DNA from: an uncultured Pseudomonadota bacterium
GTDB lineage: Bacteria; Pseudomonadota; Alphaproteobacteria; JACZXZ01
NCBI GenBank assembly: GCA_963749075.1
Contig: CAVVLJ010000021.1
Coordinates: forward strand, 512,001 to 576,000
Reading direction: 5' to 3'
Length of the DNA stretch: 64,000 nucleotides
Part shown: in pieces, positions 1-8,257 of the stretch
Position numbering within the stretch: the first letter of the stretch is position 1
Layout: each line of letters begins with the position of its first letter
Notes under the pieces: model-generated
What the model was told of the DNA's origin: nothing
The model's database searches: none
What the model saw: the letters and a program-made list of their open reading frames with translations, nothing else
Position numbers and translations under genes: made by a program

Positions 1-588
1 AGGCGCGTCTGGCGCGGCATGATCGGCGACCTCTCCCAGCGCGAGGACGAGCTCGGCGGCAAGACGCTCGTCCTCGTCGGGCTCGGGCACATCGGAGGAC
101 GCCTGGCCGAGCTCGCCAAGGCCTTCGACATGCGCGTCATCGGCATCCGCCGCAATCCCGCGGCCGGCAGCGGCGGCGCCGACGAGGTGCACGGCACGGC
201 CGAGCTCAAGAGGCTCCTCCCGGAGGCCGACTTCGTGGCGCTCACCTGCGCGCTCACCAAGGAGACGGAGAAGCTGATCGACGCCGAGGCGCTCGCGCGC
301 ATGAAGCCCTCGGCCTTTCTCGTCAACGTGGCGCGCGGGCGCTGCGTCGACGAGCCGGCGCTCGTGAAGGCGCTTCAGGAGCGCCGCATCGCGGGCGCCG
401 GCATCGACGTGACGGTGGAGGAGCCGCTCCCCCCCGCCTCGCCGCTCTGGGGCCTCGAGAACGCCTTCATCACGCCGCACACCGCCGGCGAAACGCGGCG
501 CTACGAGGACAACGTCCTCGATCTCCTCATGGAGAACCTGGGCCGGTTGTGGCGCGGCGAGACGAGCTTGCGTAATCAGATCGTCTAG
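1..588 (+). CDS. D-2-hydroxyacid dehydrogenase (C-terminal part; gene starts before the window)
   Basis: GLGHIG Rossmann motif, LVNVARG, DV..EP and TPHTAG motifs; frame is open to the window edge. Confidence 0.9.
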   Translation, partial: RRVWRGMIGDLSQREDELGGKTLVLVGLGHIGGRLAELAKAFDMRVIGIRRNPAAGSGGADEVHGTAELKRLLPEADFVALTCALTKETEKLIDAEALARMKPSAFLVNVARGRCVDEPALVKALQERRIAGAGIDVTVEEPLPPASPLWGLENAFITPHTAGETRRYEDNVLDLLMENLGRLWRGETSLRNQIV

Positions 589-704
589 GGCCCGAAGCTC
601 TCCAGCAGGTCGCGCCACGGCGCGCCCGATCGCAAGAGCCAAAGGGCGCCGTTGAGAATGCGCCTGTCATCCACACGGGGAATACCGCGTGGCTTGTTTG
701 GCAG

Positions 705-891
705 CTTCGGCTTGATGGCACGCCAGTTATAGTCGGCGGGTTCGTGCCGCATGAGTCGATGCTCCTCCTTGGGAGCTTGAATCGCGGCCGGTGCGAAGCG
801 ATCAACAGCGAACCAGCATCTCCGAAGTCACCCGCTAACCGGACATGAGGCGGACATTGGCGAATCGACGCGAATGACCCCAATGAGACAT
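705..891 (+). repeat. Cassette-boundary element 1 (TGGCAC site ... middle site ... TGACCC site), longer and more degenerate than the others
   Basis: cttcggcttga-TGGCAC at 705-721; middle site with right arm ctaaccggaca at ~818-845; atcgacgcgaa-TGACCC-caatgagacat at 864-891. Confidence 0.6.
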
Positions 892-1017
892 TAGGCCGCA
901 CACGCTATCCGTACCCAAATAGACGGCTTCAAAACTCTTCAGATGTGCTAATTTTCGATTTGGTCGGGGTTTTGTCCTGACCTGAGAACAAACAATTTGT
1001 TGCAATGGAGGTTCCAA

Positions 1018-1305
1018 ATGCCCGTCGTCGTCGTTGTTCATCGTCTCAAAAATTTTGATGAGTGGATTAAGATATTCAAGGCCGACCCCCCACCAAAAAT
1101 TGGCCGTTGGCGACTGTTACGCGGAAGCGACGATCGCAACCGAGTTCACGTTGTCGGGGACGTGGCAGCGTCGGAAGTTGAGGCCGTTAAGGATTTTCTT
1201 GGGTCGCAACACATGCAAAATGTGTTTAAGCGTGTTAACGCAATGTCGACGGCGCCGCTCGAATTCATCTGGCTCGAAGAGCTAGGGTCTGGACTCACAA
1301 TTTGA
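1018..1305 (+). CDS. Small hypothetical protein (possible dimeric alpha-beta barrel/cyclase-like); last codons replaced by IS sequence
   Basis: GGAGG RBS before ATG 1018; VVHRLKNFDEW...GSDDRNRV pattern; AT-richer than host genes; IS inserted at CTAG 1282-1285. Confidence 0.6.
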   Translation: MPVVVVVHRLKNFDEWIKIFKADPPPKIGRWRLLRGSDDRNRVHVVGDVAASEVEAVKDFLGSQHMQNVFKRVNAMSTAPLEFIWLEELGSGLTI

Positions 1306-2107
1306 TCCAGTAGAGTGCGCCGACGAGGGCTGCGGCGGCAAGGAAGTTTCTGGCCAGCTTGTCGTATCGGGTTGCGATGCGCCGCCAATCCTTGATGCGG
1401 CAGAAGTAATTTTCGATCTTGTGCCGCCTGCGATAGATGCGCTTGGGACAATAGGCTTTCTTGGTGGCATTGCTGCGGCTGGGGATGACGGGCAAGGCAC
1501 CTTCGTCCCTGATCTGCTGGCGGACCTTTTGGCTGTCATAAGCCTTGTCGGCCGCGACGGCGAGGGGCGGCTTGGGCGTGTCCAGTACCGCTTCGACGAC
1601 TTGGCTGTCATGGACCTGTGCGCCCGTGACGATGAAGTTCAGCGGGCGGCCTTTGCCGTCGACGACCGCATGGATCTTCGTGCTGCGCCCGCCCCGGCTA
1701 ATACCGATCGCCTGATTTTTCTCCCCCCTTTTGCGCCGCTCGCCGCGCGATGCGCTTTCACGATGGTGCTGTCGATCAGATAGAGGCTATCGTGCGATGT
1801 CGCGGCCAGCGCGTCGAAAATCCGCTTCCAGATGCCGCGGCGAGACCAGCGGTTGAAGCGATTGTAGACCGTCGTGTAAGGCCCATAGCGCTCCGGCAAA
1901 TCTCGCCACGGCATGCCGGTGCGCAGCACGTAGAAGATGCCATTCATGATCCGGCGATCATCCTCTCGCGCCTTCTTGCGAAGGCCCGGCATCAACGGCT
2001 CCAGCACAGCCCATTCCTCGTCGCTCAAATCAAACCGCATGATCCACCTCCAACCACGGTGAATCACATTCGGACAACTTTTTCAAGACATTATGCGGGT
2101 ACAGACC
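1286..2107 (-). mobile_element. IS5-family insertion sequence (IS427-like group), about 822 bp, CTAG target duplication
   Basis: Imperfect terminal inverted repeats GGTCTGGACTCA (1286) and revcomp GGTCTGTACCCG (ending 2107); CTAG at 1282-1285 and 2108-2111; two-ORF transposase. Confidence 0.9.
1295..2040 (-). CDS. IS5-family transposase, orfA/orfB joined by a probable -1 programmed frameshift
   Basis: orfA MRFDLSDEEW...LRTGMPWRDLPERYGPYTTVYNRFNRW...IDSTIVKAH; orfB ...SRGGRSTKIHA...ADKAYDS...IENYFCRIKDWRRIATRYDK; slippery AAAAGGGGGG at 1732-1723. Confidence 0.88.
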
Positions 2108-2238
2108 CTAGCACTCTAGTTAGCTAGCGATACGAGGGGCATTATCTGCCCCGTATCACGCCGACGTGGACGGTAAGTTCACGCCGCGCGGCAGCGTTTA
2201 GACCTGGATAGAACGCGCGCAGAGGTGCCAGCAAGTCG

Positions 2239-2357
2239 ATGTTGCTTCTTGGCACCTTGCGGCGGTGCCGGCAGCATGCGGGCGCTTCCGGAGCTGAAGG
2301 AATAGCTGCCGCGCCACTGACATGGGCGGATGACTCAGGCTGACCCGAAGGCGACAT
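2239..2357 (+). repeat. Cassette-boundary element 2 (three sub-sites, cores at 2250, 2295, 2341)
   Basis: atgttgcttct-TGGCAC-cttgcggcggt ... TGAAGG ... atgactcaggc-TGACCC-gaaggcgacat; closely similar to 4191-4309 and 5447-5562. Confidence 0.85.
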
Positions 2358-2656
2358 TCAGTACTGCTGTCAATGGTACGTAACCAGAGGGGAAAGCCTA
2401 GTAGGTACTCACCGGGTTTAGCCCCGCGCCCCTCTATTCAATCAAGATCGGCGCAAGCTGCTTCCCTGGCTTGAGAGCCGCGGCGCGTGTCATGGCAGGG
2501 CAGAATAAGGCGCGCGATAGATGAAGCAGAGTAGTCCGCGCAATGGCCTGTTGCTTCCGCACGTCGCAAGGCGTATCAACCCAAATGGCTCCAATCGCCG
2601 CTGGATGAAACTTCAGTGGCATGTCAACTTGATCAGACAAATCAGCGTCAGGGAAG

Positions 2657-2881
2657 ATGATCGCCAGCGACGATAAGAAGGTTAAAACTAACCCCGCTCA
2701 AAAAAATGAGGCCCCTCCGAAGAGCAAGGGCACTTCAGGTGTAGACCTATCCAAGGCTAAGGGCGGCGAGATAGCTGCCGACTTACCCTCCGGCTATAGC
2801 AGGGGCGAGAGCCAGAAACCGGTTTCCCAAGCTTATAAAGATAACTGGAACGTGATTTTCGCGAAGAAAAGAAAGCGATAA
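2657..2881 (+). CDS. Small Lys-rich hypothetical protein
   Basis: 74-aa ORF after AGGGAAG; C-terminus YSRGESQKPVSQAYKDNWNVIFAKK looks protein-like; lies between two boundary elements. Confidence 0.55.
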   Translation: MIASDDKKVKTNPAQKNEAPPKSKGTSGVDLSKAKGGEIAADLPSGYSRGESQKPVSQAYKDNWNVIFAKKRKR

Positions 2882-2927
2882 TTCGCGTAATGGAGCAGGT
2901 GTAGCCGGTGTAGCAGTAGCTCGGCGC

Positions 2928-3047
2928 AGTCAAGCGCTCGGCCGCTTCTCCTCGTTCGCTGCGATGCATCAACACGGCCGCTATCGAAGGGTAACCCGAC
3001 GGTCTGCGTAAATTGCGGCACCGCGGCCCATGACCCAAAGCAGATAT
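2928..3047 (+). repeat. Cassette-boundary element 3 (divergent sequence, same spacing)
   Basis: Cores CGGCCG (2939), CGAAGG (2985) and TGACCC (3031) followed by aaagcagatat; 46/46-bp spacing versus 45/46 in elements 2 and 4. Confidence 0.65.
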
Positions 3048-3220
3048 TCTCCATCATGGCCCATATCTGAGTCAGCGCTGCCCAGGCCCGCGCTGGCGAC
3101 AGGTTCAGTTGGAATTTCTAAGGCGGCGCGGTGCGGATCAGCTCTCGCCAGCGCCGGTCTCGCGCGAAACATGCTCCGTCTGGACTACGCGGTACTGTAG
3201 GTCGATTTGCTCTGCTCGAG

Positions 3221-3703
3221 CTAACGCGGACCGACCTGCAACGGCGCAGGCAAGCTATCGGGGAGCTTGCCCAGCATCTGCAACGCCGCTTGCATACCGA
3301 TGATGTAGCCGTAATTCCCAAGTCCGCAGATGACCGCTCTAACGGCCGACGACAGTTTGGAATGCCGGTGCAGCTCATCGCGTGCGTGAATGTTCGATAT
3401 GTGGACCTCAATGATAGGACCTTCAAAAATCTTGAAGGCATCCAGCATCGCGATTGAGGTGAAAGAATATCCCGCTGGGTTGATGATGATCGCATCGGCG
3501 TCCTGGCGTGCAGATTGAATCAGGTCGACTAATACGCCCTCGTGGTTCGACTGATGAAACGCCAGGCGAGCGCCGGCGAATTTGGCGAATTCCTCGCAGC
3601 TTGCCTTGACGGTCTCGAGTGTCGTCCTGCCGTAAATGTCCGGCTCGCGGGTGCCAAGAAGGTTGAGGTTAGGCCCATTCAGAACCATCAGGCGTGCGGT
3701 CAT
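3221..3703 (-). CDS. aroQ: Type II 3-dehydroquinate dehydratase
   Basis: LNGPNLNLLGTREPDIYG, QSNHEG, IINPAGYS and EVHISNIHAR motifs. Confidence 0.93.
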   Translation of the reverse strand: MTARLMVLNGPNLNLLGTREPDIYGRTTLETVKASCEEFAKFAGARLAFHQSNHEGVLVDLIQSARQDADAIIINPAGYSFTSIAMLDAFKIFEGPIIEVHISNIHARDELHRHSKLSSAVRAVICGLGNYGYIIGMQAALQMLGKLPDSLPAPLQVGPR

Positions 3704-3751
3704 GGCTTTTCCTTTCGGGCCTTCAGTTTCTGGATTGTGAGACGGTCTAGC

Positions 3752-4072
3752 TTATTTTCCGTCATGGAACAGCGTCGCGAGCGCCTCGGTGGTCCGCACA
3801 AGGATGCCCGCGTCGACACCAACGGCCGTAAAGGTCGTGCCAAGTTCGATGCAACGAGCCGCAAATGCGGCGGCGGGTGTCAAGATGCCAGCGGGCTTGC
3901 CGCACGTGCGAATTCGCCTGATGGCATCTTCGATGATCATCTTGACCTTCGGATGGCCAGGTTCGCCAACGTGGCCGAGGCTCGCCGCCAGATCGGTCGG
4001 GCCGATGAACACACCATTGACACCGTCGATTGACGCAATCTGCTCCAGGCGATCGAGCGCCTCAGCTACTGA
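3752..4072 (-). pseudogene. 5'-truncated HpcH/HpaI (HpaI/GarL-type) aldolase fragment
   Basis: EALDRLEQIASIDGVNGVFIGPTDLAASLGHVG..HP...GKPAGIL is the C-terminal half only; in-frame TGA immediately upstream. Confidence 0.8.
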
Positions 4073-4190
4073 CGATCACCGCCCGATGATAGCACTCCGA
4101 AGGTACTCGAAGCCTCGATATCTTGCGCGCTGGCACGCCGAGGGTGCGACTTTCCATATCGGAATGACTGTCTGCCGGCGCCTATCGTGA

Positions 4191-4309
4191 AAGTCTGTTC
4201 GTGGCACCTTGCGGCGGTGCCGGCAGCGTGCGGGCGTGTCCGGGGTTGAAGGAATAACTGCCGCGCCGCCGACGTGGGCGCATGGCCCAGGATGACCCGA
4301 ACCAGACAG
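4191..4309 (+). repeat. Cassette-boundary element 4 (cores at 4202, 4247, 4293)
   Basis: aagtctgttcg-TGGCAC-cttgcggcggt ... gtgtccggggt-TGAAGG ... atggcccagga-TGACCC-gaaccagacag. Confidence 0.88.
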
Positions 4310-4462
4310 CCGCGATGATCCAGACCCGCACCGGCATCGTGGGTGCTTGCCCGACGTATCGAAACGGGGCAGATTTCCGTCCGGGCCAGAGAGCATCTGG
4401 GGCATGTAGGTCGCAAGGGGCCTCCGAGAGGATAGGTTTGGCCGAACGCACAGGAGCGAGCC

Positions 4463-4942
4463 ATGAGACAGGCAGGAAGAATTGCGGCGACGGCTGTTGG
4501 CGTCTTGCTCGCGCTGACTGCGGCGGCGCTACCGGCACGGGCTCAAGTCCCATGCTCGACCGTTTGCAGTAGGTACGATCAAGGTCAATGCGTTCAGTAC
4601 ACGCACTACGGCTGCGAGGGCGCGGCCCCGTCCGCCCCCGCCAACAGCTACGGCGCTATTGCCTTCGGCTCCAAGAGCAGGGCCTGGGGCGTGTCCTATC
4701 ATTGGGGCAGCGAGGCGAAAGCGGAGAGCGTTGCCATGCAAAGCTGCAAGCAGCACGGCGACGATTGCGAAGTGATGGTGTGGTTCGACCGCAAATGCGG
4801 AGCGGTGGTGGCGGCCGACGGTGCCGCCGCCTTTTGGGGGCTTGGCGACAGCGAAGCCGAGGCGCGCGCGGACGCCCAAACCAAATGCGAGCAAGGCGGC
4901 GGCAAGGGTTGCAAGGTGTGGGCTTATCAGTGTTCGAAGTGA
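4463..4942 (+). CDS. Secreted Cys-rich DUF4189-like protein
   Basis: AGGAG RBS; signal peptide; YGAIAF...AWGVSY...AESVAMQSC....C.VMVWF..CGA pattern. Confidence 0.75.
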   Translation: MRQAGRIAATAVGVLLALTAAALPARAQVPCSTVCSRYDQGQCVQYTHYGCEGAAPSAPANSYGAIAFGSKSRAWGVSYHWGSEAKAESVAMQSCKQHGDDCEVMVWFDRKCGAVVAADGAAAFWGLGDSEAEARADAQTKCEQGGGKGCKVWAYQCSK

Positions 4943-4968
4943 GGGTTTGGAAGTCTGACCGCGGGCGA

Positions 4969-5322
4969 GTGAGGGTGCCTCTCATCGTCAGCCTCCTCCT
5001 AATTTTCCTTCGTCCCGCAATCGCCGACTGTGTGACCGGCGAACATTTCGCCTGTGTGACGCTGGATGGATTTGACGAGGTGGCAGCGGCGCTGAAAGCG
5101 GGCAATCCAAACGTCATTCACACGCCGGGTTGCGATTATACGGAGCCGGGTCACAAAGTCGAAGTAATAGGACCGATGGCCGCTCTCGCCGAACCCATTG
5201 CCATATTCTATGGCGATTCGGCAGTCACCAGAGCGAGCGGCGTGCCCGATGTATTTCGATCATTGGCGCAGTCAGGATGGATCCACGTCTGGACGATCAA
5301 GGAGAACGTTGTATGCAATTGA
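4969..5322 (+). CDS. Hypothetical secreted protein
   Basis: GTG start, hydrophobic signal (VPLIVSLLLIFLRPAIA), four Cys; directly follows the DUF4189-like gene. Confidence 0.5.
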   Translation: MRVPLIVSLLLIFLRPAIADCVTGEHFACVTLDGFDEVAAALKAGNPNVIHTPGCDYTEPGHKVEVIGPMAALAEPIAIFYGDSAVTRASGVPDVFRSLAQSGWIHVWTIKENVVCN

Positions 5323-5446
5323 AGCACTATCCCTCTTTCGGCGGGGTTGCCGCGCTGTCGCTCTCTGGCTTAGTCACGATTTCTCTTGTTGCGTGCATGG
5401 GTTGCCTTCGATCGTTCAGATGAAGTCCGGTGTGCGGTCCGGCGCG

Positions 5447-5562
5447 ATGTCTGCTTATGGCACCTTGCGGCGGTGCCGGCAGCGTGCAGGCGTGTCCGGG
5501 GTTGAAGGAATAGCTGCCGCGCCGCTGACGTGGTCGGATGGCCCAGGATCTCGAGCGGACGC
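5447..5562 (+). repeat. Cassette-boundary element 5 (third core degenerate)
   Basis: atgtctgctta-TGGCAC-cttgcggcggt; body nearly identical to element 4; right end reads ggatctcgagcggacg instead of ggaTGACCCgaagcggaca. Confidence 0.82.
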
Positions 5563-5755
5563 CGGCATTCGTGCATCGTTTAGCGCGTGTACCTTCCTCG
5601 AAATTCATACGACGGCGCAATCGCCGCTTGCCGCACGGGCGTCGACACCATAACGAGCCGAACCGCGGGCCTGTTCAGGGCAAAGCGTTGCTCGCGACCG
5701 TGGTGCCGATGGCCTGAATCGGCAGCCCGCAAGACCGATCGTCGTGCCTCTTGAT

Positions 5756-6256
5756 CTATTTTGCGGCCCCGAAGAACTGATAGGTCGCGGAGTAGCGCAT
5801 TCGGGCCTGCTCGCCCAAGTGGCTTGCGTCGCAGCCGGTTGCAGGTGCCGCACCCCCCTTGGTGTCGGCCCGGCGGATCGTCGTGACCGCGGCGAGGCTC
5901 CCCGAACCCTCGTGGGTCTTGACCTCGAGGAGGAGCCAGGGAACAGCGCCAGGTTGAGGCGCCTCCGCCTTCGCGAAGATCGCGCCGGTGACCTCGGAGC
6001 CGTCGGCGAGCTTCCAGCCGGGGCCCGCGAAGTGGGTTCCGATCTGCCTTCCCTTAGCGTCGAAGAGATTGGCCTCGGGCGCCTTGAATACCCACTCCGG
6101 TCCCTTGTCCTTGGCCTCGCAGGAATAGATCTGAACTCCATCGGCCTCAGCCTCGGCCAGGAGCGGCGCACCCGCTGGCGGGGCCACCGCGGCCTGGCCG
6201 GCGAGCGCGGGCACTGTGCAGAGGATGAGCAAGGCGCCGGCGACACGAATGATCAT
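5756..6256 (-). CDS. DUF3455-family secreted protein
   Basis: Signal peptide; GVQIYSC...W.FKAPEA.L...GTHFAGP.W...AVPWLLL...DTKGG.AP...YSATY. Confidence 0.8.
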   Translation of the reverse strand: MIIRVAGALLILCTVPALAGQAAVAPPAGAPLLAEAEADGVQIYSCEAKDKGPEWVFKAPEANLFDAKGRQIGTHFAGPGWKLADGSEVTGAIFAKAEAPQPGAVPWLLLEVKTHEGSGSLAAVTTIRRADTKGGAAPATGCDASHLGEQARMRYSATYQFFGAAK

Positions 6257-6432
6257 GGCATTCTCTTCCCCGCGACCGCCCCGGGCGATCGCCGTCGTGG
6301 TTGCAGTTCCGGTCAATGCGTCATACCGGACGTTGACGAGCCGCTGCCGACCAACCTCGATTTATCAGTTCTCGCCCTAGCCTCCTCGTATCGTCTCCGG
6401 GTGCCTTGAGGCCGCCGCCGCCCCGCGCCGCC

Positions 6433-7257
6433 TCAATGCCCCTGCAGCACCAGCACCTCCGGCCTGCCGCGCGGCAGGGTGTCGCGCGAGACTTCGGCCG
6501 TGGCGCTCTCGCTGATCACGATGCTGTGCGTCTCGCGCATGCGCTCGAGGAAGCGCTCGAGCGTCGCCTCTGTGAAGAAGTGCATGGGGATGACGAGCGG
6601 GGCCGCGATCTCGCGCACCACCTCGATCATGTCGGGCTGGCTCATGGTATAGACGCCGTCCACGGGAACGAGGAGCACGTCGATCTGGCCGAGCTCGCTC
6701 AGATGCACGTCGGTCAGCGTATGGTGCAAATGGCCGAGGTGCGCCACGCAGAGATTGGCCGTCTCGAAGACGAAGATCGAGTTGCCGTTAAATCGCGTGC
6801 CGCCCTCGTCGCGCACGTTGGTCGGCACGTTGCGCACGCGCATGTCCTTGTAGAGGATGTTGTAGCGCGCGAGGCGGCCCGGCTCGTCCCAGCCGCGCAG
6901 CACGTATTTGATCTCGGGCTCGGGCGTGTCCGTATAGTGCATGGAATGCGCGTTGTTCATGGTCACGATGTCGGGAATATGCGGCGGCTTTATGATGCCG
7001 TTGTAGTCGGTCACCGCCGTCACGCCTTCGGGCGATTCGATGAGGAAGCTCGCGTGGCCGAGGTAGGTGAGCGAGACCGTGCCGGGTGCCAAGGCGAGCC
7101 GCGGGGCGACGCTCGCCGGCTGGAGGAGCCCGTGGCTCCCTTCGGCGATCGGCAGGCAGGCGGCCGCCGCGAGCGCCGGGAGTGCGAGGAGGGCGGCGAG
7201 CGCCAGCGCCGCAGCCTTAAGCCGAGGTGGCGCGCCCGAAGGCAGAGCCGGGACCAT
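6433..7257 (-). CDS. MBL-fold metallo-hydrolase
   Basis: YLGHASFLI, MNNAHSMH, HLGHLHH, PVDG.YTM and IPMHF motifs. Confidence 0.85.
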   Translation of the reverse strand: MVPALPSGAPPRLKAAALALAALLALPALAAAACLPIAEGSHGLLQPASVAPRLALAPGTVSLTYLGHASFLIESPEGVTAVTDYNGIIKPPHIPDIVTMNNAHSMHYTDTPEPEIKYVLRGWDEPGRLARYNILYKDMRVRNVPTNVRDEGGTRFNGNSIFVFETANLCVAHLGHLHHTLTDVHLSELGQIDVLLVPVDGVYTMSQPDMIEVVREIAAPLVIPMHFFTEATLERFLERMRETHSIVISESATAEVSRDTLPRGRPEVLVLQGH

Positions 7258-7396
7258 GACCGTCTCTCCAATCTGCAGGCACCGCCATCATAGCACGGCT
7301 GCGCCGACCTGCGAGCAATTCCCCTGTCAATCCCCGCTGCCGGCGATAAGCTCGAGGCCGGCGCGGGAAGGGCCGCGCAAGCGGAAGGAGTAGGCC

Positions 7397-8257
7397 ATGT
7401 CTGCGGTATCGAAGTTCCGCGCGCTCCTCGACGGGCCCGGCATCGTGGTGGCACCCGGCGTCTACGACGGCCTCTCGGCCAAGCTCGTCGAGCGCGCCGG
7501 CTTTGCCGCCGTCTATGCAAGCGGCGGCGCCATCGCGCGCAGCACGGGCGTTCCCGACCTCGGCCTCCTCGGCGCCGCCGAGATGGCGGCGCGCATCGCC
7601 GAGATCGCCGCGGCCACGCGGCTTCCCGTCATCGCCGACGCGGACACCGGCTACGGCAACGCGCTCAACGTGCAGCGCACGGTGCGCCAATACGCGCGCG
7701 CCGGGGCCGCCGCCCTCCATCTCGAGGATCAGCTCTTTCCCAAGCGCTGCGGCCATTACGAGGACAAGGCGCTGGAGCCGGCCGAGACCATGGTGCAGAA
7801 GATCCGCGCCGCGCGCGAGGCGGCCCAAGAGTCGGGCCTCGTCATCATCGCGCGCACCGACGCCATCGCGGTCGAGGGGCTCGAGGCGGCCCTCGCGCGC
7901 GCCCGCCGCTATGGCGAGGCGGGAGCCGACGTGCTCTTCGTCGAGGCGCCGCGCTCGCTCGCGGAGATCGGGCAAATCGCGGCGGCACTGCCGCAGCTCA
8001 AGCTCATCAACATGTTCCAGGGCGGCAAGACGCCGCTCGTCCCGATCGAGCGCTTGCACGAGCTCGGCTACAAGATCGTCATCATCCCCTCGGACCTGCA
8101 GCGCGCCGCCATCCATGCCATCGAGGAGACGCTCGCCGCGATCAAGACGCAGGGCAGCAGTGCTGCCGTGGCGGAGCGCCTCGCCTCCTTCGCGGCGCGC
8201 GAGGCGCTCGTCGGCCTCGGCGACTATGTGGCGCTCGAGAAACGCTTCGCCGGCTGA
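7397..8257 (+). CDS. Isocitrate lyase/PEP mutase family protein (PrpB-like)
   Basis: APGVYDGLSA, IADADTGYG, LEDQLFPKRCGH and IARTDA motifs. Confidence 0.9.
   Translation: MSAVSKFRALLDGPGIVVAPGVYDGLSAKLVERAGFAAVYASGGAIARSTGVPDLGLLGAAEMAARIAEIAAATRLPVIADADTGYGNALNVQRTVRQYARAGAAALHLEDQLFPKRCGHYEDKALEPAETMVQKIRAAREAAQESGLVIIARTDAIAVEGLEAALARARRYGEAGADVLFVEAPRSLAEIGQIAAALPQLKLINMFQGGKTPLVPIERLHELGYKIVIIPSDLQRAAIHAIEETLAAIKTQGSSAAVAERLASFAAREALVGLGDYVALEKRFAG

Follow-up and report, generated by a model that had tools for sequence, protein, structure and literature searches.

The stretch of DNA analysed here, called the window throughout, comprises 64,000 nucleotides (nt) of a metagenome-assembled genome (MAG) of a soil alphaproteobacterium (G000:C21:512001-576000; genome size 5.49 Mb, 68% GC, 23 contigs, completeness 96%, contamination 5%). 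At positions ~600-5700 the window contains a low-GC island (49-64% GC), flanked by a D-2-hydroxyacid-dehydrogenase-like gene (1-588) and a DUF3455 gene (5756-6256), in which five short elements, e1 to e5, alternate with blocks of unrelated genes (Table 1). The GC content at third codon positions (GC3) of the open reading frames (ORFs) in these blocks is 0.57-0.73, compared with 0.81-0.95 in the flanking genes (0.95 in the dehydrogenase-like gene and 0.81 in the DUF3455 gene), so the deviant codon style reported in an initial annotation of this sequence is borne out and the composition of the blocks is foreign to the host. That annotation regarded the five elements as related, all in one orientation and with unrelated genes between them. 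Three of them, e2, e4 and e5, are indeed copies of one repeat of ~115 nt, here called R, which are 78-92% identical, all on the + strand and separated by unrelated genes; e3 has no detectable similarity to R beyond the end motifs, and e1 (segment 801-891) is a different repeat of ~80-90 nt that recurs at seven other places. The described layout of four blocks also stands, except that block 1 holds an insertion sequence (IS) and that what was called block 4 probably consists of two modules, given that similarity to other genomes stops at 4945-4965. Pfam searches agree with the gene calls aroQ, HpcH/HpaI aldolase fragment and DUF4189, and returned no match for the gene called 'barrel-like' and no family for the 95-aa, 74-aa and 117-aa ORFs of the array. 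R, and the other elements that share its ends, are the subject of this report.

Comparisons were made with five other genomes of the same genus (G001-G005; G000 is the genome holding the window, and its GTDB order numbers 11 genomes), with array loci that include metagenome contigs (L-numbers, such as L079) and with contigs of public runs (X-numbers). One metagenome-contig scan gave 40 profile matches on 26 contigs, and the genus together with soil and peat metagenomes provided 54 unique R copies after duplicate removal. The R site reads GTCYG-N4-TGGCAC on the left, where N4 stands for any four nucleotides, followed by a variable centre of 70-100 nt and by TGACCC and then N4-CRGAC on the right. 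In an alignment of 44 full-length copies, information is high at GTCYG, at TGGCAC, over the whole centre and at TGACCC, is weaker at CRGAC(AT), and is near zero in both 4-nt spacers. Among the 54 unique copies the spacers are hypervariable, with 31 distinct sequences in 46 on the left and 32 in 43 on the right, and TGGCAC is exact in 37 of the 48 left ends that could be assessed. The two ends are inverted copies of each other only at GTCYG/CRGAC; further in, TGGCAC does not correspond to the complement of TGACCC, and no target duplications were seen around R when the flanks were read by eye. A sub-variant of R occurs at L079:2133, L097:1098, L034:11498 and L031:4400, in which the loop CTTGCGGC between the GGCAC/GTGCC arms is replaced by GAAACCGC or GAAGCCGC and the arms are unchanged.

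Ends like those of R also enclose unrelated centres, as in e3, in a 108-nt 'C149-type' element of G003 and G004, at G000:C4:163432-163550 and in short forms; further types with the same ends precede DUF4189 genes in G002 and G004. The C149-type element is 76% identical between G003 and G004, and this homology runs exactly from the left outer motif to TGACCC. Two 'minimal' sites, of 28 nt in L060 and of 27 nt in G003:C149, consist of both outer motifs around one hybrid core, TGGCCC(C). Module starts carry N4-CRGAC(AT), and each module end carries its own junction element.

Six matches to R were found in G000, namely e2, e4 and e5 together with C16:332046, C4:167230 and a partial copy at C22:71579; three of the six lie within 3.3 kb (simulated P = 2.5e-5). 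R was found in four of the five other genus genomes, and a sample of 55 further genomes of the family and class yielded no copy. Across 13 non-redundant arrays, adjacent R pairs are 0.7-5 kb apart and are co-oriented in 19 cases out of 19, and one further copy, in G003:C28, is 12.5 kb off and on the opposite strand. G000 has at least two more arrays, made up of elements of other types, at C4:163.4-167.4 kb and at C22:58-61 kb; the latter has a short e1-like segment at its start. A strict two-ended pattern of the site matched 3 of 401 genomes of the class, with 0 matches in the reversed control. One of these three genomes, G254, belongs to another alphaproteobacterial family, and the site is therefore present in a second family, although the pattern is absent from the five other genomes of that family (1/6, G254 alone). 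On contig C6 of G254, co-oriented right sites at 3760, 5144, 9219 and about 12160 separate genes for SpoIIAA-like, small family-less, Cache-domain (a fragment), cation-efflux, protoglobin-MCP (methyl-accepting chemotaxis protein) and hemerythrin-domain proteins, and a DUF4189 gene (26-652) and an IS3-family IS (839-1992) lie just ahead of the first site.

The blocks between sites are 0.7-5 kb long and hold one to five genes, on either strand and with their own upstream regions, so the arrays are not promoter-driven stacks like those of integrons. Relative to R, the upstream gene is on the same strand in 21 cases and on the opposite strand in 14, and the downstream gene in 13 and 15, respectively. 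R usually lies 10-100 nt from a gene end, often just past the stop codon of a PF04392 (ABC_sub_bind) gene; such binding-protein genes often stop 13-20 nt from the right site. Among the Pfam families assigned to 200 ORFs near R, the commonest are Guanylate_cyc, ABC_sub_bind, TPR, DUF4189 and GGDEF/EAL. In the two tallies that make up this set (122 and 78 ORFs), which cover only the 25 commonest families and could hide single weak recombinase matches, Guanylate_cyc accounts for 9 of 122 ORFs and ABC_sub_bind for 4 of 122 and 7 of 78. Modules of ~580-590-aa adenylate/guanylate cyclases flanked by R occur at L029:11529-13271, L083:8466-10226, L087:5717-7477 and L085:3274-5049.

The exchange of blocks with breakpoints at the 6-nt cores, which the initial annotation had put forward as a check, was examined in eight junction comparisons in which identity was counted per 60 nt before versus after the core. 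In all eight, homology starts or stops abruptly at the core. The block of the window with aroQ, the aldolase fragment and e4 (3031-4298) is 95.4% identical to L079:2239-3506, and its neighbours differ on both sides. At its left edge, 25 of 60 positions match before the core and 57 of 60 after it, the DNA upstream being the centre of e3 in the window and an R centre in L079; e3 thus sits at a block junction. At its right edge, 55 of 60 match before TGACCC and 18 of 60 after it, beyond which the window continues with a DUF4189 gene and L079 with the end of a PF04392 gene. The corresponding counts before and after the core are 58/60 and 19/60 for L093 versus L096, 53/60 and 60/60 for L087 versus L097, 18/60 and 57/60 for L087 versus the minimal site of L060, 20-21/60 and 40-42/60 for the DUF4189 module versus two other contexts, and 29/60 and 45/60 for the e1-like element of G002 versus an R copy of the same genome. 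In four contexts with unrelated DNA upstream (the window, G002:C55, G003:C149 and G004:C345), the core is where the DUF4189 module and its 165-nt upstream region begin; in G003 and G004 the module is followed by a C149-type element.

In five of the comparisons, different element types stand ahead of the same block (e3/R, e1-like/R, 28-nt minimal/R, and two types before DUF4189). Homologous recombination between repeats cannot explain these five junctions, because the upstream elements share only the core, and junctions of unlike element types share only 6-17 nt in all. Where blocks have been shared recently, the N4 spacer stays with the downstream block. Two pairs, L030 versus L098 and L029 versus L083, break at the left site instead, and on this sequence evidence the left core TGGCAC may be a second exchange point. 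At the singleton G000:C16:332046 there was no clean empty site in five relatives, whose synteny begins only at the downstream acyl-CoA dehydrogenase gene.

The neighbourhoods of R could also be those of intergenic repeats, either of the repetitive extragenic palindromic (REP) kind or regulatory, for example 3' elements of paralogues, that have no dedicated mobility and appear shuffled through co-duplication, general recombination and assembly errors. In favour of this are the position of R near gene ends and past PF04392 stop codons, the families of paralogues that dominate its neighbourhood, and PF04392 paralogues only 70-80% identical that bear different element types at the same position; the data, moreover, are all assemblies. 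The 6-17 nt shared at junctions of unlike elements are, however, too little for homologous recombination or repeat-induced chimeras, and one block that is 95% identical has unrelated DNA on either side. There is also no conserved fold, Rfam gave 0 matches, and co-orientation within arrays is strict despite flanking genes on either strand, all of which makes a REP-like or regulatory origin distinctly unlikely. As a candidate in its own right, the REP or REPIN (hairpin-forming REP doublet) class was rejected on the six R copies of G000, three of them in one 3.3-kb cluster, and the lack of a stable fold, no search specific for RAYT (REP-associated tyrosine transposase) genes having been made. A known RNA family was rejected as well, with 0 Rfam matches at E <= 1 in window 1-8000, as was a sigma-54 promoter reading of TGGCAC-N-TTGC, whose spacing is wrong by eye. 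The initial annotation had named random scatter, IS ends and RNA families as readings that would count against it; the elements are not randomly scattered and are without an Rfam match, and only e1 matches an IS-associated repeat.

The layout of the array recalls a cluster of attC sites lacking integrases (CALIN), with its alternation of gene and site, its elements 100-135 nt long that are conserved at the ends and variable in the middle, and an element at each module's own end while a short motif alone marks the start. The sequences themselves argue otherwise. As the initial annotation had stated, the attC boxes RYYYAAC/GTTRRRY are missing, with 0 in e1 to e5 on either strand and 0 box pairs spaced 40-130 nt in 600-5700. 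The DNA folds of e2 to e5 are no better than those of shuffled sequences (z -1.5 to +1.4), and the consensus fold of 33 R copies (-10.5 kcal/mol, covariation term -0.04) has 16 pairs that do not join the ends. With several genes per block on both strands and no IntI in five genomes, the idea that these are true attC sites can be given hardly any credence.

Diverged Xer sites are another possibility, in which case the blocks would be dif modules moved by the housekeeping XerC and XerD, as for the plasmid dif (pdif) modules of Acinetobacter. The site can be read as 11-6-11 nt, or 28 nt, and minimal forms of 28 nt (L060) and 27 nt (G003:C149) exist; XerC/D-like genes, present in every genome checked (n = 6), would account for the absence of a visible dedicated enzyme; and the blocks lie between inverted half-sites, as they do in dif modules. 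The genome has a candidate chromosomal dif at G000:C16:1180755, with the canonical inner palindrome CATAA-N6-TTATG, which is its sole strong match. The sites of the array are unlike it, as had been claimed of the canonical XerCD dif sequence. Xer sites are best conserved at the arm positions adjacent to the core, and in the present sites those four bases are the most variable. Xer enzymes are near universal (six genomes were checked here), and the strict pattern was seen in 3 of 401 genomes of the class. We regard an Xer origin as very improbable.

From the comparisons of sequence, we are somewhat inclined to regard the elements as the sites of a cassette exchange system that is site-specific and whose enzyme would act in trans. 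The double-stranded end motifs would be recognised by a recombinase or transposase supplied from another locus. Cutting and joining of modules would take place at, or inside, the 6-nt core TGACCC, with N4 and the downstream DNA going with the next module, and TGGCAC, the left core, would be the point of some breaks. The module, probably as a circle with one complete site, would be joined beside the core of a resident element, an e1-like segment or a minimal site, and insertion head to tail would lead to arrays in which all elements are co-oriented. We infer, then, an exchange that is enzymatic and site-specific and that may pass through a circular form of the module.

A number of observations weigh against such a system. 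TGACCC is exact in 33 of 46 assessable right ends among the 54 unique copies (43 with at most one mismatch), the right outer motif is loose, with NRGAC 4-6 nt past the core in 21 of 43 copies, and the short right-site motif by itself shows no enrichment in G000 (22 matches versus a control median of 27). All comparison sequences are assembled MAG or metagenome contigs, and the public runs were compared as assembled contigs and not as raw reads. A 115-nt repeat could yield chimeric joins, which weakens individual calls of R-to-R neighbours. Chimeric joins at R are unable to explain the junctions with non-R elements, because those elements share only 6-17 nt. The contigs showed no circular junction, empty site or excision joint, and the excised circles or split joints that had been anticipated were thus not reliably seen, the only trustworthy joint being an IS-free allele of block 1. 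Joints 2111>4206, 2338>4259, 2343>5453 and 4297>5470 in the runs were not used, since their sides are 29-50 letters long and most likely come from other R copies or organisms. A Logan contig of run X1 does cover e3 and the aroQ block contiguously (2891-4231).

The enzyme itself adds to this list. No integron integrase was found, with 0 of 5 genus genomes reaching the TIGR02249 cut-off (best score 96.7 bits versus 265). There was no PF00589 match on G003:C28, G003:C2 or G254:C6 or in the window, and serine recombinases (PF00239) were not found in G001 and G002, both of which carry R. No recombinase recurs near the 13 arrays, and none tracking the sites was found elsewhere, contrary to the expectation of a dedicated recombinase co-occurring with arrays; the further prediction of a recombinase encoded outside the window is in keeping with the lack of any recombinase gene found within it. 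The only recombinase among the 25 commonest Pfam families near R (200 ORFs) is a housekeeping-looking Xer gene in G003:C149, and a tblastn search with the nine tyrosine and two serine recombinases of G000 against 273 kb of array loci and the window gave one match. This match is a 184-aa resolvase/invertase gene at L091:6026-6577 on the - strand (PF00239, E = 2.8e-46, plus the helix-turn-helix domain HTH_7), its stop codon ~20 nt before an R copy that is without the left outer motif (5898-6006, -); it is the only recombinase adjoining any R copy. No such sites lie close to its homologues in G000 and G003, and we treat it as a lead only. Further candidates for the enzyme are XerC and XerD of the genus, an IS5-family transposase and a tyrosine recombinase of roughly 500 aa that the genus conserves (G000:C21:601930). 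Adjacent trios of tyrosine-recombinase genes occur on G254 contigs C2, C4, C17 and C18 and at G003:C186:823-3147, but not near arrays and not in G000; these sets look like 'recombinase in trio' elements.

Also counting against a dedicated system is the fact that the e1-like segment often adjoins fragments of IS5-family elements and that the ends of IS427-like elements, like the core, finish in GACCC. A transposase origin of the core is therefore conceivable. This segment recurs at G003:C2 (after a tRNA-Phe gene), G001:C337, G002:C263 (a locus orthologous to G003:C14), and G000:C16:132918 and 604268, and in a shorter form at C22:60951. It heads three arrays, those of the window, G003:C2 and G000:C22, and is found at several places where core genes meet low-GC DNA. 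In the window it is preceded by a fragment of an IS5-family transposase that is cut off at the stop codon of the dehydrogenase gene. The fragment is 47% identical to the IS427-like IS in block 1 and its seven other G000 copies, and no close relative of it was found in the 11 genomes of the order. In G003:C2 (L031) the e1-like segment is at 1957-2032 and the array begins ~250 nt past the tRNA-Phe gene; tRNA genes are a classic insertion point of islands, and no integrase was found on this 11-kb contig.

R could accordingly be an IS-derived non-autonomous element, such as a miniature inverted-repeat transposable element (MITE) or solo end, with the core as an IS terminus, where a DDE transposase supplied in trans joins units of element plus adjacent DNA in the manner of IS26. 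The transposase remnants beside the e1-like segment, of the N-terminal end in the window, G003:C2 and G001:C337 and of the C-terminal end in G002:C263/G003:C14, are in accord with this, as are the terminus ...CAGACCC of the IS427-like IS and the breaks falling exactly at the element end, as at the end of a transposon. The outer motifs read TGTC...GACA, which is typical of DDE transposon ends, and the direct orientation and shared elements fit the layout of IS26 arrays. Set against these similarities, no intact e1-type IS was found in the 11 genomes of the order, and a query of window DNA did not detect the IS427-like IS in G002, G004 or G005, although G002 and G005 carry R. The R ends are not mutual inverted copies beyond GTCYG, no target duplications were seen by eye, and N4-CRGAC is conserved outside the supposed terminus. 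We consider an IS origin unlikely, if less so than the other alternatives. In a site-specific exchange system, the e1-like segment could play the part of an attI-like entry site; it could alternatively be an IS end whose terminal GACCC served as a secondary site. A search of the orthologous loci L055 and L056 for an inverted copy of the e1 end was negative.

The blocks of the window show several further features. The IS of block 1 (832 bp) interrupts the block inside the end of its 95-aa ORF and is a recent insertion, contigs of runs X1 and X3 joining 1281 to 2108 in an IS-free allele. Its ends read GGGTCTG.../...CAGACCC, and tblastn finds eight copies of it in G000. Of the aldolase gene of block 3, only the part for the final ~70 residues remains (profile positions 148-219 of 221); the truncation is older than the block exchange, because aroQ is accompanied by this same fragment in L079. 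The array closes with e5, which lacks the TGACCC core. A contig of run X2 matches 2593-3047 at about 95% identity, and this run covers 2340-3035 and 4428-4949 but hardly 3036-4079 and 4950-5297, the uncovered parts being no evidence of absence; in runs X2, X3 and X5 alike, some blocks are covered and others are not.

Table 1. Elements, blocks and genes of the array, in positions of the window
Feature	Position	Strand	Description
IS5-family transposase, first 55 codons (DUF4096)	585-752	-	Pfam PF13340, E = 1.6e-13
e1-like segment	801-880	+	Two direct CGGACAT motifs, then ATGACCC core (875-880); at array start
Block 1	881-2346	+	N4-GAGACAT start (881-891), 95-aa ORF from 1018, IS insertion, R copy e2
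IS5-family (IS427-like) IS	1283-2114	-	Two overlapping transposase frames; inverted ends 1278-1299 and 2094-2115; Pfam DUF4096, DDE_Tnp_1
R copy e2	2233-2359 (profile)	+	Left site 2239-2255, core TGACCC 2341-2346
Block 2	2347-3036	+	N4-GCGACAT start, 74-aa ORF 2657-2881, element e3
e3	2928-3047	+	AGTCAAG-CGCT-CGGCCG at 2928-2944; core TGACCC 3031-3036; type other than R
Block 3	3037-4298	+	N4-CAGATAT start, aroQ, HpcH/HpaI aldolase fragment, R copy e4
aroQ	3221-3703	-	Pfam PF01220
HpcH/HpaI aldolase fragment (C-terminal)	3752-4012	-	Pfam
R copy e4	4185-4311 (profile)	+	Left site 4191-4207, core 4293-4298
Block 4a	4299-4965	+	N4-CAGACAG start, conserved 165-nt upstream region, DUF4189 gene 4463-4942
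Block 4b	4969-5549	+	117-aa ORF with signal-like N-terminus (4969-5322), R copy e5
R copy e5	5445-5570 (profile)	+	Left site 5447-5463; R homology stops near 5549, without TGACCC core

A survey of 243 genomes reports no integrons, In0 or CALIN in Alphaproteobacteria and calls this 'extremely puzzling' (PMC4889954). Our full-text literature search returned only integron and dif-module papers, with no description of the present sites, which is no proof of their being unpublished. If the proposed exchange is correct, Alphaproteobacteria would reach cassette capture by a route of their own, using a different site and, presumably, another enzyme. It would also provide a concrete mechanism for the expansion of adenylate cyclase and PF04392 paralogues in soil Alphaproteobacteria, and a new pair of recombination site and enzyme for the molecular toolbox. 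The site is defined to the base and several natural before-and-after junctions are known, making the proposal directly testable.

Among known systems, the closest in layout are integron arrays and CALIN, which likewise consist of co-oriented unrelated modules, each ending in its own 100-135-nt element with conserved ends and a variable centre. A short start motif, a crossover fixed at one element end and, as in CALIN, no integrase nearby are further points in common. Unlike in integrons, the array sites have neither R''/R' boxes nor a conserved single-strand fold, IntI was not found (5 genomes), crossover takes place at the border of inner core and spacer instead of inside the outer box, and the modules are multigene (1-5 genes), on either strand, with upstream regions of their own, and 0.7-5 kb long. 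The pdif and dif modules are similar in their short sites readable as 11-6-11, in having no dedicated recombinase gene nearby and in the inverted half-sites around each block. The R sequence is nevertheless unrelated to the dif candidate of the genome, its core-adjacent positions are variable and its half-sites are 70-100 nt apart; and, unlike pdif modules, the arrays here are chromosomal and belong to an uncultured soil lineage.

Arrays of IS26 also alternate direct copies with unrelated DNA, with a unit of element plus adjacent DNA and junctions at element ends, but R has 115 nt, is non-coding, is without the usual terminal inverted repeats and has no cognate transposase that could be found. 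MITEs, REPs, bacterial interspersed mosaic elements (BIMEs) and REPINs are, like R, short, non-coding and intergenic, form families and subfamilies and often lie at gene ends; R differs from MITEs and REPs in its low number (about 6 copies in 5.5 Mb), its tight co-oriented clusters, the lack of visible target duplications and of a stable hairpin, and the break in block homology inside the element, after TGACCC, and not at its outer ends. The resolution (res) sites of serine resolvases are similar in size (~120 nt) and likewise comprise three sub-sites with motifs; TGTCYG, the outer motif here, is similar to the consensus of resolvase half-sites, and one R lies 20 nt past the 184-aa resolvase/invertase gene. 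The present sites are unlike res in being many per genome and in arrays, with sub-sites that are not clear dyads, in genomes (G001, G002) where small serine recombinases were not found, and they are missing near the G000 and G003 homologues of that resolvase. It is conceivable, though we would put it at a little under an even chance, that a third and independent platform of gene capture exists besides integrons and Xer-dependent dif modules, one in which modules of one to several genes with a bipartite double-stranded site would be added head to tail at a 6-nt core by a recombinase family new to cassette capture, and which would work in Alphaproteobacteria, where integrons are conspicuously missing, spread between families and help expand their signalling and transport paralogues (adenylate cyclases, PF04392 binding proteins, DUF4189 and GGDEF/EAL proteins).

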